A DNA stretch of 64,000 nucleotides, from contig JAZLAI010000017.1 of NCBI GenBank assembly GCA_045613105.1, forward strand, positions 43,497 through 107,496, in the 5' to 3' direction. Source of the DNA: Bacteroidales bacterium (lineage in GTDB: Bacteria > Bacteroidota > Bacteroidia > Bacteroidales > F082). Numbering within the stretch: position 1 is the first letter of the stretch; every line of letters begins with the position of its first letter. The translations under genes and the position numbers were made by a program. The notes beneath the pieces were generated by a model. It worked only from the letters and a program-made list of their open reading frames with translations. It did no database searches and was not told the DNA's origin. Below are positions 3,267-42,064 of this stretch, piece after piece.

Positions 3267-4472
3267 ATGAAAATTTTAGTTTTAAACTGTGGCAGCTCAT
3301 CTATCAAATATCAACTTTTCGATATCGATGATAATGGCCACAACGTTTTGGCAAAAGGTCTCCTCGAGCGTATCGGCCTCGAAATGGGAGAATTCACTCA
3401 TAAATGGAATGGCGAAAAACATTACGAACAACTTCCTATTCCAAACCACACTGTAGGTATCAGCATCGTTCTTAACGCATTGCTCGACGAAAACCACGGC
3501 GTCATCAAATCATTAGACGAAATCGGTGCTGTCGGTCATCGTTTGGTTCACGGCGGTGAAAAATTCACCAAGAGCGTCCTCATCGACGACAGCGTCATGG
3601 AACTCATGGAAGAACTCATCGACCTCGCTCCTCTCCACAACCCAGCATGTATGGCAGGTGTGAAAGCTGTTACAGAATTGCTTCCTAACGTAAAACAAGG
3701 CGGCTGCTTCGACACAGCATTCCATTCAACAATGAAACCAGAGGCTTACCTCTACCCTATCCCTTACGAATATTACGACAAATACCGTGTACGTCGTTAC
3801 GGTTTCCACGGAACAAGCCACAAATTCGTTGCAGAAAACGCAGCTAAATTCGTCGGCAAAGACTGGAACGACCAGAAGATCATCACATGCCACTTAGGCA
3901 GCGGCGCTTCTATAGCAGCAGTAGAAAACGGCAAATCAGTTGACACATCAATGGGCTTCACTCCTGTTGAAGGTCTTATGATGGGCAGCCGCACTGGCGA
4001 CCTCGACCTCGGTGTTTTCATGTATATAGCTGAAAAAGAAGGCTACGACCTCAAACAAATGAACACTCTCGTCAACAAGAAATCTGGTCTCATCGGTATC
4101 ACTGGCGACAAACAAGACATGCGTGACGTTAGAGCTGGCAAAGAAGCAGGCGACGAACGTGCTACATACGCTTTCGACATGTTCAAACATCGCGTCAAGA
4201 AATATATCGGTGCTTACGCAGCTGTTATGAACGGCGTTGACATCATAGTCATGACTGGCGGTATCGGAGAAAACGCTTGGTTCATGAGAGGTCCTATATT
4301 GGAAAATATGGAATATCTCGGTGTCAAGATCGACATGGAAGCCAACAACGCAACAATGGGCGAAGCACGCATCATCTCAACACCTGACTCAAAGGTAACA
4401 GTCGTAGTATTCCCAACAGATGAAGAATACATGATTGCAAAAGATACATACGACATCGTAAAAAGTCTTTGA
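3267..4472 (+). CDS. ackA: Acetate kinase
   Basis: MKILVLNCGSSSIKYQLF... and ...RRYGFHGTSH... are canonical. The ORF-track start at 3171 adds 32 non-conserved residues, so the ATG at 3267 is preferred. Confidence 0.92.
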   Translation: MKILVLNCGSSSIKYQLFDIDDNGHNVLAKGLLERIGLEMGEFTHKWNGEKHYEQLPIPNHTVGISIVLNALLDENHGVIKSLDEIGAVGHRLVHGGEKFTKSVLIDDSVMELMEELIDLAPLHNPACMAGVKAVTELLPNVKQGGCFDTAFHSTMKPEAYLYPIPYEYYDKYRVRRYGFHGTSHKFVAENAAKFVGKDWNDQKIITCHLGSGASIAAVENGKSVDTSMGFTPVEGLMMGSRTGDLDLGVFMYIAEKEGYDLKQMNTLVNKKSGLIGITGDKQDMRDVRAGKEAGDERATYAFDMFKHRVKKYIGAYAAVMNGVDIIVMTGGIGENAWFMRGPILENMEYLGVKIDMEANNATMGEARIISTPDSKVTVVVFPTDEEYMIAKDTYDIVKSL

Positions 4473-4501
4473 TAAAGACTAAAGACAAAAGTCTAAAGTC
4501 C
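4462..4501. repeat. Heptad-periodic array (aaagtct/ttgataa/agactaa/agacaaa/agtctaa/agtcc) spanning the ackA stop codon
   Basis: AAAG(A/T)C words recur every 7 nt. TAA triplets fall in alternating frames. Confidence 0.6.
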
Positions 4502-4590: not shown

Positions 4591-5664
4591 ACTAACAGTC
4601 ACCACTTCTATAGGCTGTGAGTTAGGCTCATCCAATCTTTGATATTGATATTTAACTTTAGCGAAATCGATTTCCTTAAGGTCTATCATTCTGATATTGT
4701 TATTATCGAAAGTCTTATAATAAACCACCTTGTTTGTAAGGTCGATCACCGAAATCCATTGCGTTGCGCTTGGCAAGTTAGGTATCTCGTTTTTAGGGAA
4801 GTTCATTCCTATCGGAATGTCGAAGTTGTTCAATATATGAAAGCATTGGAGCATTGTCTCACGAGCTGTTGCCAACATTGGAGCTGTACTTTTGAAGAAA
4901 GCCACTCTCACGAAACGTGAAGGAGGAGTGAAGTCGCCAGGGAGTCCAAGAAATCCGTTGCCATGACCTATTGGGTTAACCATAAAGTCACTCATTTTAT
5001 GAGCTGCAGGATTTACAGGAGTAAGGTTAATGTAATTGCTCAAGTTGTTAAGATGCCACTGAAATCCAGGAGCATTTGTAATGACACCTATAGGGTTGTC
5101 ATAGATATGAACGATACCTTTTTCGATCTCGATGACGATTTGCTTACCAGAGCTGTCACCCACTCTCCAGTGTATAGCCTCTTCAGAGCCATCGCCTCCC
5201 ATGAGTGAGACTACACGCACCTTATTAATATTAGCTTCTACTTCAGCCACAGATGCGAATTGCGACAACAACCACGACACCAACTGAAGGTCAGCAATTG
5301 TTGTAGAGTTATACTTCTCATCATACAGCTGATAGCTTCCATAATTAGGGAAATAGAAAAGTCCTGCCGACAAGCCTGCTTCATTGACACCTTCAGCGAT
5401 GAATTCCTTTTCATGGACTGCAAGTCCCACATAACCATACTTTGCTTTAAATGTCATTCCATTATTTCCTTTTGGCGTGAATGACGTCTGACTGAAATTT
5501 CTAGGAACAACGACATACATACTATTAAGATTAGTACCTGCCCACTCTATTGTTCGTGCTTGGATATAAGATCCGTCAGCGGCAAACATGGAGATTCCGG
5601 TACATGCCTCCGCCTTAAACTGCCAGGCGAAGAACAGACATGCAATGATGAATAGCTTTTTCAT
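4588..5664 (-). CDS. Choloylglycine hydrolase / linear amide C-N hydrolase family (Ntn hydrolase, bile-salt-hydrolase-like), secreted
   Basis: 358 aa. A signal peptide ends ...KAEA and is followed by CTGI, placing the nucleophile Cys at the mature N-terminus. Family-typical segments: RTIEW, NEAGLS. Confidence 0.75.
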   Translation of the reverse strand: MKKLFIIACLFFAWQFKAEACTGISMFAADGSYIQARTIEWAGTNLNSMYVVVPRNFSQTSFTPKGNNGMTFKAKYGYVGLAVHEKEFIAEGVNEAGLSAGLFYFPNYGSYQLYDEKYNSTTIADLQLVSWLLSQFASVAEVEANINKVRVVSLMGGDGSEEAIHWRVGDSSGKQIVIEIEKGIVHIYDNPIGVITNAPGFQWHLNNLSNYINLTPVNPAAHKMSDFMVNPIGHGNGFLGLPGDFTPPSRFVRVAFFKSTAPMLATARETMLQCFHILNNFDIPIGMNFPKNEIPNLPSATQWISVIDLTNKVVYYKTFDNNNIRMIDLKEIDFAKVKYQYQRLDEPNSQPIEVVTVS

Positions 5665-38929: not shown

Positions 38930-41900
38930 TTATCCTACTACGATATTGATAATCTTCTTAGGAACAACGATGATTTTCTTGATGCTCTTGTCTGCCACCC
39001 ATTTTATAGCCTCTGGTGTTTCAACGACTATCTTCTCTATTTCAGCAGGGCTTAAAGTAACAGGCAATTCGAGATCGAAACGTTTTTTACCGTTGATAGA
39101 GACAGGATATGTGAAGCTGTTTTCCACCACATAGCTCTCGTTGAACTCAGGGAACTTCTGTATCACCACGCTGTCGTCGTGACCCATCTGGTGCCACAGT
39201 TCTTCTGCGAGGTGAGGTGCATAAGGAGAAATCATGACTGCAAGAGGTTCGAGTATCTCACGTTTGTTACACTTAAGGTCTGTCAACTCGTTGACACAAA
39301 TCATGAAAGCTGAAACGACAGTATTGAAAGAGATACGTTCAATATCATCTTCTTCTTTCTTGATAAGCTTATGCAATGATTTCAACTCTTCTTTTGTTGC
39401 AGGCTCATCGCTGAAGCTGAACTCATTATTCTCATCAGTATATAATCTCCAGAACTTACGGATGAAACGATAGACACCTTCTATACCTTGAGTATCCCAT
39501 GGCTTGGACTGTTCAAGAGGTCCGAGGAACATTTCATAAAGTCGTAATGTATCAGCGCCATATTTATCGACCAAGTCGTCAGGATTTTGAACGTTATATT
39601 TAGATTTAGACATTTTCTCGACTTCCCATCCACATACATAGATTGGATTACCATCCTTGTCTTTTTCAAAGATAAACATAGCGTTGCTGAGGTCATCACG
39701 CCATTTCTTGAACTCTTCTGTATCGAGGATATCATTATGAACCATATTGATATCGACACGTATAGGATCGCTATATTCTTCTCTGCCTTCAACGTTCTTC
39801 GACACGAACAAACGAGGAGCTTCCAGTTGTTCAATATCTTCGAAAGCAGGAACGTCCTTACCATTGATAAGGTCTTTAATTTTTTGTATTACTTCAGAAA
39901 AGTCTTCGTCGATAAGCACCTGACGGATAGGGATGAGTAACAACTTACAACCCAGAACGTCAGCGATATGTTCGTAGGCATCAGCCACTTTTTCAAGTGA
40001 TGACACTTTCTTTATTTCAATTATTATATTCTTTTCTTGGCAGTAGAAGTCGAATTTACGACGTCCCATCTTATAGTCTCTAACGAATTTTACTCCGAGC
40101 TGTCCGTCTTTGATAACCTGCCATGTCTTGTACTCAGCCATCTTTTCAAAGTTGACACGATAGACGAAGTTTGTTCTACCTTGAATCATACCTTGGTTGA
40201 TCATCTTTTGGAACGGCTCGTCCTTACATGTCGCACCTATATCGAACAAGAACTTATTCCAGAAACGGCTGTAGATAAGGTGACCTGTTCCGTGTTCAGC
40301 ACCTCCGATATATAAATCGACCTGTTGCCAGTATTCGTTAGCTTCTTTGCTGATGAACTCGTCATTATTTTGAGGATCCATATAACGCAGGTAATAGCCG
40401 CTTGAGCCAGCGAAACCAGGCATGGTATTAGTCTCAAGAGGATACCCTTCTTCTGTTGTCCAGTTCTTGGCGCGTGCCAATGGAGGTTCGCCGTTTTCTG
40501 TCGGTTTGTATGCGTCGATAGGAGGAAGTTCGAGAGGCAGTTTGCTTTCATCCAATGCGTATGGCATTCCGTCTTTGTAATAGATAGGGAATGGTTCGCC
40601 CCAATAACGTTGACGGCTGAAGATAGCGTCGCGGAGACGATAGTTGGTTTTGCCTTTACCGATACCCATTTCTTCCACCTTATTAATCATTGTAGCTATA
40701 GCTTCTTTCACTGTAAGGCCGTTAAGGAAGTCGGAGTTCACCATCACGCCTTCTTTAGCGTCGAACGACTCTTCCCACAGAGAAGCATCTGTTGGTTCTT
40801 CGCCAGCTTTAGCGACCACCTGAGTGATAGGAAGGTTGAAATGACGTGCGAATGCAAAGTCGCGGCTGTCGTGAGCAGGCACAGCCATGATAGCTCCAGT
40901 TCCGTAGCCCATGAGTACATAGTCAGCCACCCAGATAGGTATTCTTGCTCCGGTGAATGGGTTGATGCCGTATGCTCCGGTGAATACGCCAGACACTTTC
41001 TTTACTTCAGCCATACGCTCACGTTCCGAGCGGTTCTTAGCCCATGTTACATATTCCTCTACAGCGTCACGCTGTTCGTCGGTGACGAGGCTGTTTATCA
41101 TTTCATGTTCTGGAGCCAGCACCATGAAACTTGCGCCGAAGAGTGTGTCGGCACGTGTAGTGAAGACTTCTATATTAATATCTTTATCAGCTATGTCGAA
41201 GAAAAGCGATGCGCCCATCGACTTGCCTATCCAGTTGCGTTGCACTTCCTTGATAGACTCGCTCCATTCTATTGTCTCAAGACCTTCGAGGAGACGTTCA
41301 GCATAGGCTGTGATACGGAGAAGCCATTGTTTCATGGTCTTACGTACCACAGGATGACCGCCACGTACAGAGAGTCCGTCGGCTACTTCGTCATTAGCAA
41401 GTACTGTGCCGAGTTCAGGACACCAGTTGACCATAGTGTCGGCGAGATAAGCGAGACGATAATTCATCAAAGTCTCTTGTTGCTCTTTCTCGCTCATGGC
41501 ATTCCACTGTTCTGCTGTGAAAGAAAGCGGCTTGCTGCATGCAGCGTCCAATCCTTGAGAGCCCTGTGTCTCGAATCTTTTAACCAAATCAGCTATAGGC
41601 TGAGCCTTTTTCGACTGGTTACAATAATATGAATTGAAAAGCTGGATGAAGGTCCACTGAGTCCATTTGTAATAATTAGGGTCGCTGGTACGCACTTCGC
41701 GATCCCAGTCATAACAGAAACCAATTTTATCCATCTGTTCGCGATAACGATTGATGTTTTTCTCTGTTGTTATTGCAGGATGAGTACCTGTCTGGATAGC
41801 ATATTGTTCTGCTGGGAGTCCGTATGCGTCATAACCCATAGGGTGAAGGACGTTAAAACCTTTCAGGCGTTTGTAACGAGCATAGATGTCTGATGCTATA

Positions 41901-42064
41901 TAACCGAGAGGGTGACCTACGTGAAGACCTGCTCCTGATGGATATGGGAACATATCCAGAATATAAAACTTTGGCTTATTCTTGTCAATATCAACTTTGT
42001 AGATATTATTGTCGCGCCAATATTCTTGCCATTTCTTTTCTACTTCATTAAAATTGTAATCCAT
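38930..42064 (-). CDS. leuS: Leucine--tRNA ligase, unusually long (1044 aa)
   Basis: HIGH motif ([10 protein letters not shown]), CP1 editing domain, KMSKS ([10 protein letters not shown]), anticodon-binding and C-terminal domains. Confidence 0.93.
39860..40129 (-). other. DUF559/Vsr-like endonuclease-fold module inserted in LeuS (aa ~646-735)
   Basis: [41 protein letters not shown]...[14 protein letters not shown]...[10 protein letters not shown] compared with the DUF559 pattern LWxxLRxxxLGxKFRRQxxIGxYIxDFxCxExKLxIExDGxxH...GxxVLRFxNxEV. Confidence 0.65.

Follow-up and report, generated by a model that had tools for sequence, protein, structure and literature searches.

Aminoacyl-tRNA synthetases are known to collect accessory domains. 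Within leucyl-tRNA synthetase (LeuRS), one site of variation is the leucine-specific (LS) domain, which follows the second half of the Rossmann fold and precedes the KMSKS catalytic loop. The described LS variants (LS1 of Escherichia coli, LS2 of Thermus thermophilus and the GKDG tetrapeptide of Mycoplasma mobile) all occupy this position. The LS region is variable, dispensable in some species, and influences tRNA-Leu binding and the aminoacylation/editing cycle (PMC3643597, PMC6588880). The domain takes part in recognizing tRNA-Leu, and a tetrapeptide can stand in for it (PMC3643597). In the different LeuRS conformations, the domain lies near the tRNA (PMC6588880). Here we describe a leuS gene from a Bacteroidales genome of the F082 lineage (GCA_045613105.1), found in a stretch of 64,000 nucleotides of contig JAZLAI010000017.1 (positions 43,497 to 107,496; hereafter the window). 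The encoded LeuRS carries a complete DUF559 domain, with a Vsr-like PD-(D/E)xK nuclease fold, at the LS position. Known LS variants alter the LS domain itself, a small zinc-ribbon-related fold, whereas here a complete foreign domain, unrelated in fold and adding 115 residues, is nested in its first hairpin. The module is a lineage-specific domain insertion in an aminoacyl-tRNA synthetase; the host is an ordinary LeuRS and the insert a divergent member of DUF559.

The described DUF559 proteins (e.g., NGO0050, structure 3hrl) are free-standing, ~110-180 amino acids (aa) long and basic, and carry the motifs RRQH, DGxxH, D..R and RFxN. The module has homology to them over the whole domain, with the same fold, hydrophobic core, Asp and Glu, but it is embedded, approximately neutral, and lacks those motifs. 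Vsr and the EDxHD enzymes (e.g., I-Bth0305I, structure 3r3p) have the same fold. Their key residues are a Mg-binding Asp (D51 in Vsr), a His general base (H69 in Vsr) and further acidic residues (PMC3239194, PMC11879112). D51 and H69 are paired in Vsr (PMC11879112), and the substitution H213A served to inactivate I-Bth0305I (PMC3239194). The module keeps the D51 equivalent. Unlike Vsr and the EDxHD enzymes, it lacks the general-base His and a NUMOD region and is not located in an intron or intein. Neither a Zn site nor DNA-intercalating residues were identified in the module.

The RAP domain of FASTKD4 also has a Vsr-like fold in which the Asp is kept and the His replaced, and it binds RNA without cleaving it (PMC11879112). 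RAP proteins are eukaryotic and organellar and have a positively charged cavity, whereas the module is not basic overall and has no Pfam RAP match. The likeness would thus lie in a possible mode of action and not in belonging to one family. In-frame insertion of a nuclease-type domain into an essential conserved gene is also seen in inteins with nested homing endonucleases; unlike them, the module has neither a splicing domain nor the residues of a splice junction. A class Ia synthetase is also combined with an unrelated enzyme-family domain in isoleucyl-tRNA synthetase with an N-acetyltransferase (GNAT) domain (NCBIfam NF040702), although both synthetase and domain are different. Full-text literature searches found no LeuRS with a DUF559, Vsr-like or restriction-endonuclease-like insertion, and NCBIfam contains no family model for DUF559-containing LeuRS. 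The original prediction, made from the sequence of the window, likewise knew of no such description. The fusion is already implicit in public databases, as Raineya orbicola is represented in RefSeq.

Position and identity of the inserted domain

The leuS gene (38930-42064, minus strand) was assigned using the open reading frame listing, Pfam, NCBIfam TIGR00396 and alignments to the LeuRS structures of T. thermophilus and E. coli. It encodes a protein of 1044 aa, which bears out the prediction of a product ~100 aa longer than usual (the norm in Bacteroidota is ~926-950 aa). The protein scores 940.7 bits against TIGR00396 (leuS_bact), for which the curated equivalog cutoff is 548.4. It has the class I signatures HVGH (aa 48-51) and KMSKS (aa 817-821; 39602-39616, minus strand), and Pfam matches to the class I catalytic domain, the CP1 editing domain (PF13603, aa 276-463, E 8e-65) and the anticodon-binding domain (PF08264, aa 894-1004, E 9e-18). 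The host enzyme is an intact, bona fide bacterial LeuRS.

In ordinary Bacteroidota LeuRS, QGMIQG to KMSKS covers 82 aa inclusive, and the site of the insert reads FVYR-IKGSN-TFVS, a tight beta-hairpin (80 genome loci compared). In the window protein, QGMIQG (aa 624-629) to KMSKS spans 198 aa inclusive, with the predicted 187 aa between the motifs. Comparison of the 80 loci, together with an alignment of modules, places the inserted module at V637-R751 (115 aa; 39812-40156, minus strand), where baseline Bacteroidota have 5-7 residues; the segment is not universal in the phylum, which rules out the alternative, named with the original prediction as a refutation, of a phylum-wide segment with another fold. 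The residues originally singled out (646-735, positions 39860-40129) read as quoted and do fall in the DUF559 stretch, but the full insert is slightly wider. None of the genomes behind the 80 returned loci appears twice, which fits a single copy of leuS.

The module lies between FVYR and LFVSK, within the first LS hairpin; KMSKS follows 66 residues downstream. The module is preceded by aa 624-636 (40157-40195, minus strand), which run from the start of QGMIQG through the LS entry and first beta-strand to the N-terminal insert junction; this segment is kept in all Bacteroidota LeuRS examined and aligns to the start of the LS domain in solved LeuRS. The remainder of the LS domain (L752-E816; 39617-39811, minus strand) begins at LFVSK, the second strand of the hairpin. 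When aligned to T. thermophilus LeuRS (1h3n), the protein matches up to residue 633 (583 in T. thermophilus) and again from 813 (633 in T. thermophilus), leaving ~130 extra residues at the LS position, the location that had been proposed. In the alignment, M. mobile LeuRS (3ziu) is without the LS region.

The DUF559/Vsr-like assignment was upheld by sequence profiles and by structure. Pfam PF04480 matches the module at 25.2-29.7 bits (gathering cutoff 20.6), and 13 of 19 related modules match it independently. The local match spans profile positions 16-67 only. The first half of the domain had been read as the well-kept part; it is kept, but the whole domain is retained, and the Pfam match merely ends at profile position 67. 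Using hhalign, a profile of 19 LeuRS modules matched one of 31 free-standing DUF559 proteins at 99.2% (E 2.1e-19, 97 columns). When 1.84 billion representative proteins were searched exhaustively with phmmer, 45 matched, nearly all of them small free-standing DUF559 proteins aligned along the whole module. With a DUF559 alignment as input, AlphaFold2 (AF2) gave a model of aa 628-765 in which predicted local distance difference test (pLDDT) values exceed 90 through the core. Foldseek matched this model to the DUF559 crystal structure 3hrl with a template-modelling (TM) score (target) of 0.81, a root-mean-square deviation of 2.3 A over 94 columns and E 2e-5. The second-best match in the Protein Data Bank (PDB) is the catalytic domain of I-Bth0305I (3r3p, TM 0.64); Vsr (1cw0) has a query TM score (TMq) of 0.50, and the matches include several proteins of the Toxoplasma gondii mitoribosome large subunit. 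Viral fold matches are phage DUF559 proteins and homing endonucleases. In a second AF2 model (aa 620-830), the module is again confident.

The DUF559-homologous core, delimited by hhalign, AF2 and Foldseek, extends from K641 to P739 (39848-40144, minus strand) in the order alpha-beta3-alpha-beta-alpha-alpha. The chain returns to the LS hairpin through a C-terminal linker of ~17 residues (G735-R751; 39812-39862, minus strand). G735 and F741 do not vary in any of the three lineages in which we identified the module (F082, S015 and Raineya, described below), and K736 and V738 are conserved in the F082 lineage. The linker is kept by alleles with partial deletions and has low pLDDT when modelled outside the LeuRS context. 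The modules have a mean net charge of -0.1 (range -7 to +4), compared with an average of +4 for free-standing DUF559 proteins. No match to the module was found in PHROGs, and PADLOC returned only a marginal generic PD-(D/E)xK match (SduA, E 0.008).

Some free-standing relatives consist of two to three tandem DUF559 domains (P0007, 377 aa; P0016 and P0051-P0057, ~280-300 aa), and the DGxxH motif is missing from the first two repeats of P0007. A 16-nucleotide imperfect direct repeat (88%) occurs within the module of the window (39981-39996 and 40134-40149, coding LEKVAD and FEKMAE) and is probably due to chance or to a common helix-capping motif.

An insert that carries a nuclease in frame within an essential gene is typically an intein, and an association of Vsr-like endonucleases with inteins is known (PMC2677866). 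An element of this kind, with a nuclease domain, would be removed from mature LeuRS by protein splicing. The junctions read RVN followed by FEK and APR followed by LFV, with neither an N-terminal Cys/Ser nor a C-terminal His-Asn followed by Cys/Ser/Thr, as originally noted, and all related modules are alike in this. Also lacking are Hint or intein matches to Pfam in LeuRS, and the DUF559 domain and linker account for all 115 aa. We regard an intein as extremely improbable, and the junctions predict that the module remains part of mature LeuRS. Equally little credence can be given to a chance resemblance or to an artefact, through assembly or frameshift, confined to this contig. Some database relatives are indeed fragmented by frameshifts or N gaps (L001, L002 and P0006), but the same in-frame module is present in ~44 species genomes and 80 metagenome contigs, and the homology statistics are strong.

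Residues at the active-site positions

The counterpart of the Mg-binding Asp51 of Vsr is D672 (40049-40051, minus strand), mapped using the DUF559 alignment and PMC11879112. It is invariant in 38 unique genome-derived modules from the three lineages. E683 (40016-40018, minus strand), the conserved acidic residue of DUF559 and EDxHD proteins, is nearly so: 31 F082 modules have E and 2 have D, and the other lineages have E. As predicted, the DGxxH motif of DUF559 is replaced, here by K685-K686-V687-S688-S689 (39998-40012, minus strand). Position 685, a conserved Asp in DUF559, is K or N in modules and R in Raineya; Asn is present in 10 of the 33 genome modules of F082 and in 42 of the 55 unique modules from metagenomes. 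Position 686, a conserved Gly in DUF559, is K or R, and S in other lineages. Position 689, the general-base His of DUF559, is occupied by S, N, G, D, A, K or I; His occurs there in none of the 38 genome and 55 metagenome unique modules. We considered whether a canonical D...ExK site has been restored (D672-x10-E683-I-K685 in the window) and rejected this, as the Lys is not conserved among relatives.

Residues common to the fold core of modules and free-standing DUF559 proteins are E644, W648, G657, F660, D672, F673, C675, E683, G705 and I729. The polar motifs of DUF559 have been lost (KFRRQH is replaced by KFVRDY, DGxxH by KKxxS and LRFxN by LLIPI, and D..R is gone), such that D672 and E683 are the only family-conserved polar motif residues kept. 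New constraints specific to modules were identified at N638, D653, K678, L690, K692, Q727, D731, G735, K736, V738 and F741, and these cluster in the last helix and linker. Because the general-base His and most of the conserved polar residues are lost, the module is most likely a pseudo-nuclease. The suggestion that catalysis may be lost is thus supported as far as these residues are concerned; D672 and E683 remain conserved.

These two residues would be important in an alternative in which the module is an active nuclease or phosphodiesterase tethered to LeuRS, with a re-modelled site (D672, E683 and Lys/Arg at 685/686), moonlighting on RNA or DNA. A basic residue is always present at 685 or 686, R668-R669 beside the site and D/E695 are conserved in F082, and the window reads D-x10-E-x-K. 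However, position 685 toggles between K and N among close relatives and is commonly Asn in metagenome modules, which is unlike a catalytic Lys, and the residues of RRQH and RFxN are lost. No module has a His equivalent to the one mutated in I-Bth0305I (PMC3239194). FASTKD4, in which the Asp is kept and the His lost in the same way, was found not to act as a nuclease (PMC11879112). We consider an active enzyme improbable.

Distribution, inheritance and loss

Among GTDB species representatives, an uninterrupted in-frame module is present in ~44 independent species genomes. The group known as "bacterium F082" or Candidatus Limimorpha (gut, rumen, faeces) accounts for ~39 genomes, with 198-203 aa from QGMIQG to KMSKS. 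A similar insert is present in a second Bacteroidales lineage, "S015" (L041 and L042), with different LeuRS flanks, and another in Raineya orbicola and two Cytophagales metagenome-assembled genomes (MAGs) (L044, L045 and L047), with 188 aa from QGMIQG to KMSKS. Over their matched region, the window and JAZKYG010000148.1 (L004), a contig of a Bacteroidales MAG, are 100% identical. A metagenome scan (alignment A7) identified 113 further contigs; the module is inside leuS in all 80 that were retained, as it is in all genome matches. The module is absent from the Bacteroidota baseline and marks the F082/Candidatus Limimorpha lineage. It is therefore a clean molecular marker for this uncultured lineage, which is abundant in rumen and gut samples.

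We did not identify a close free-standing relative of the module in protein databases or genome scans. A hidden Markov model (HMM) of F082 modules scores S015 modules at 80-85 bits and single-domain free-standing DUF559 proteins at 59 bits or less. As S015 modules score above every single-domain free-standing DUF559 protein, the F082 and S015 modules are specifically related. With 16-18 bits in the same HMM, the Raineya insert is far more divergent. Its hhalign probability is 60% against free-standing DUF559 proteins and 90% (E 2e-6) once LeuRS modules are included in the profile, and it has the site, length and D...E pattern of the F082 modules and a similar linker. A common origin of the Raineya insert and the F082 modules is probable, but not proven. 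Raineya orbicola has been isolated in culture, and its probably related module offers an experimental entry point.

Protein-level searches nearly missed the module-bearing LeuRS because the gene calls of the closest relatives are fragmented. In L001 (Logan SRR14141793) and L002 (an ENA scaffold), leuS is broken into 3-5 gene calls; the breaks in L001 are frameshifts. A reading of L002 as a split leuS with two unknown genes in between was rejected, given N gaps in the scaffold. Searching a 5.8-billion-protein database with a module-only profile (A1) gave nothing over threshold, and a profile that includes the flanks gave only five fragmentary pieces of LeuRS. The distribution given here comes from scans of genome and metagenome DNA.

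Several further sequences were noted. The LeuRS of L108 (Ga0265295_1000200) has different flanks around its module (FDFYS...LLIEVKKQQS) and possibly represents a further module-bearing lineage. P0006, a 180-aa and apparently frameshifted gene call with a module 45% identical to that of the window, is probably from another divergent leuS. The free-standing DUF559 proteins P0050 (180 aa) and P0085 (129 aa; L084, nucleotides 5001-5390) are called "leucyl-tRNA synthetase" by JGI. P0085 was rejected as part of a split leuS, as the gene is not near leuS. The label was apparently transferred from DUF559-containing LeuRS, and is an example of how fused enzymes can lead to mislabelling of free-standing DUF559 proteins. 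In other Bacteroidota (Crocinitomicaceae, Taishania, Fluviicola, Brumimicrobium and some Cyclobacteriaceae), unrelated-looking insertions of 40-85 aa occur in or just after the same LS hairpin, with 125-166 aa from QGM to KMSKS (L050-L054, L056, L058, L061, L063-L066, L070 and L080). Judging from these sequences, the LS region seems to be a general insertion hotspot in Bacteroidota.

Several observations bear on the age of the module. In a neighbour-joining tree of LeuRS from which the whole variable region had been excluded, the F082/Limimorpha sequences form one clade and Raineya falls within Cytophagales. The GC content at third codon positions (GC3) of the module tracks that of the host gene over the range 0.32-0.76 (mean difference -0.06) in 38 of 39 genome loci, and the two also match in 55 of 55 unique metagenome modules. 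Divergence of the module is proportional to that of the LeuRS core, with a slope of ~3.3. Across lineages, the F082-S015 divergence is 1.45, compared with 1.41 expected from this slope, and, as expected from the slope, the F082-Raineya identity of 21% lies in the range of saturation. The ratio of nonsynonymous to synonymous substitutions (dN/dS, Nei-Gojobori) is 0.006-0.14 for the module and 0.03-0.05 for the rest of leuS; within the Raineya group, the module has values of 0.03-0.05. As dS is high the individual ratios are rough, yet all are far below 1. The single clade, matched GC3, proportional divergence and low dN/dS together indicate long residence, vertical descent and purifying selection. 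Thus, we conclude that the module is ancient, vertically inherited and under strong purifying selection.

In the window, the module has a GC content of 0.39 and GC3 of 0.40, compared with 0.44 and 0.45 for the gene, and resembles the 3' part of leuS; the comparison of composition suggested with the original prediction gave no signal of foreign DNA. No flanking repeats were found around the module in the window. With this unremarkable composition and no flanking repeats, nothing in the window points to a recent acquisition.

The module is missing or reduced in four genomes nested in the module-bearing clade (L043, L046, L048 and L049). L049 has a clean hairpin, FVYRSKNDKNLFVSK, and falls inside a module-bearing subclade with 100% bootstrap support. 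In L043 and L048 (110 aa from QGMIQG to KMSKS) and in L046 (109 aa), ~28 residues of the module are left, corresponding to the last DUF559 helix and the linker (VQKFKDYFAGKEIPF...). As they carry this helix and linker, the short alleles go back to the long form, from which ~88 residues were deleted. L046 and the module-bearing L032 are sisters (100% bootstrap), L043 and L048 are placed elsewhere in the core tree, and grouping of the three together has 0% support. There have been at least two losses, and possibly three. Because some lineages within the clade have deleted it, we conclude that the module is dispensable; in the reading preferred below, it would be helpful but not essential. The natural deletions parallel the replacement of the LS domain by a tetrapeptide (PMC3643597). 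The short alleles of L043/L048 and of L046 have derived residues in common (YFA, xSN) despite their separate tree positions, each supported at 100%. This suggests either convergent deletions or a single allele spread by recombination.

The exception in GC3 is L039 (JBGUHI010000037.1, Candidatus Limimorpha sp. ruminal_MAG_354), a single MAG in which the module has a GC content of 0.34 and GC3 of 0.29 between flanks with GC3 of 0.77. Nucleotides ~4085-4480 have ~45-60% identity to relatives, whereas the leuS flanks on both sides have 85-95%, and the breakpoints in identity are the module boundaries. From this pattern, the whole module looks as if it was exchanged for one from a low-GC donor. Alleles so unlike in composition have few long k-mers in common, which makes a chimeric assembly the less likely explanation. 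The L039 type of module was not found in the JGI metagenome scan. The early description of a fixed domain insertion is supported, as the module behaves like a fixed domain passed on vertically; the losses and one cassette-like replacement refine it.

The replacement in L039 is the strongest point in favor of a different history, in which the module is a selfish cassette, formerly or occasionally mobile, that derives from a Vsr/EDxHD homing endonuclease and sits in frame in a permissive loop. The host would gain no benefit, and selection would merely keep the fold harmless. The DUF559/Vsr fold family does include homing endonucleases, among them I-Bth0305I and phage examples (PMC3239194). The distribution is patchy: one and the same site is occupied in LeuRS cores of different orders (F082, S015 and probably Raineya). 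Losses are repeated. The two partial-deletion alleles with common derived residues, apart in the core tree, also suggest exchange of alleles. On the other hand, dN/dS of the module is as low as that of the LeuRS core, GC3 is fully ameliorated at all loci but L039, and divergence tracks the host across lineages, which argues against recent spread. The His is missing everywhere and most polar residues are lost, and no NUMOD or other DNA-targeting domain was identified in the module. L039 could itself be a chimera. We consider a selfish cassette possible, though unlikely.

It is doubtful, and less probable still, that the module represents a new type of mobile element, a Vsr/DUF559-derived cassette that resides in frame in leuS without splicing machinery and is exchangeable between alleles, or, as a variant, that the D672/E683 pocket provides LeuRS with a second, nucleic-acid-directed activity. 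An exchangeable cassette, if real, would explain the use of one identical site across Bacteroidota orders together with repeated loss.

Possible role of the module in LeuRS

We lean, with reservations, towards an exapted pseudo-nuclease that serves as a non-catalytic accessory of the LS domain, tuning either tRNA-Leu handling or the mobility and stability of the LS domain and KMSKS loop. In this reading, a complete DUF559 domain was taken up in frame, long ago, into the first beta-hairpin turn of the LS domain, and vertical inheritance has since kept it within a LeuRS that is otherwise intact. It is translated in one polypeptide with LeuRS and, to judge by its junctions, is not spliced out. 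The general-base His and most polar residues have been lost, and new conserved residues gained in the last helix and linker. The sequences show the identity, position, age, selection, motif loss and dispensability of the module; the accessory role itself is inferred. In this form the module may modulate tRNA-Leu binding or the aminoacylation/editing cycle without catalysis, in a manner similar to RNA-binding Vsr-like RAP domains. We infer a tRNA-related role because the LS domain adjoins the KMSKS loop and the tRNA. The fold matches to proteins of the T. gondii mitoribosome also count in favor of this reading.

Several observations weigh against this interpretation. Proximity of the module to tRNA has no direct support, and the LS part of the AF2 model of aa 620-830 has pLDDT <65. 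The neutral charge of the modules is unlike that of a general RNA-binding appendage. Given repeated loss, any benefit must be conditional. The module evolves ~3.3 times faster than the LeuRS core, and a cassette-like replacement such as that in L039 is not predicted by simple vertical domestication. Finally, a purely structural role does not account for how strictly D672 and E683 are conserved.

The module is a natural case in which a nuclease-fold domain became a probable pseudo-enzyme within an essential translation enzyme, beside its KMSKS loop. As a single family includes the insertion, partial and complete deletions and one apparent cassette swap, the contribution of the LS domain to tRNA-Leu handling is directly testable. 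The insertion is a surprise to specialists and amenable to experiment, but overturns nothing unless the module is a mobile cassette or an active nuclease.

No RAP domain (PF08373) was identified among the Pfam matches of the LeuRS, even at E values up to 10. The only tRNA gene in the window is for tRNA-Thr. A second extra stretch of ~59 aa, relative to T. thermophilus LeuRS, is present at aa 144-202 (41459-41635), just before the ZN-1 region, where the CPxC zinc ligands read CPEL in the window LeuRS. This stretch was found in other Bacteroidota LeuRS too; it is probably phylum-wide and the source of much of the extra length of LeuRS in Bacteroidota.

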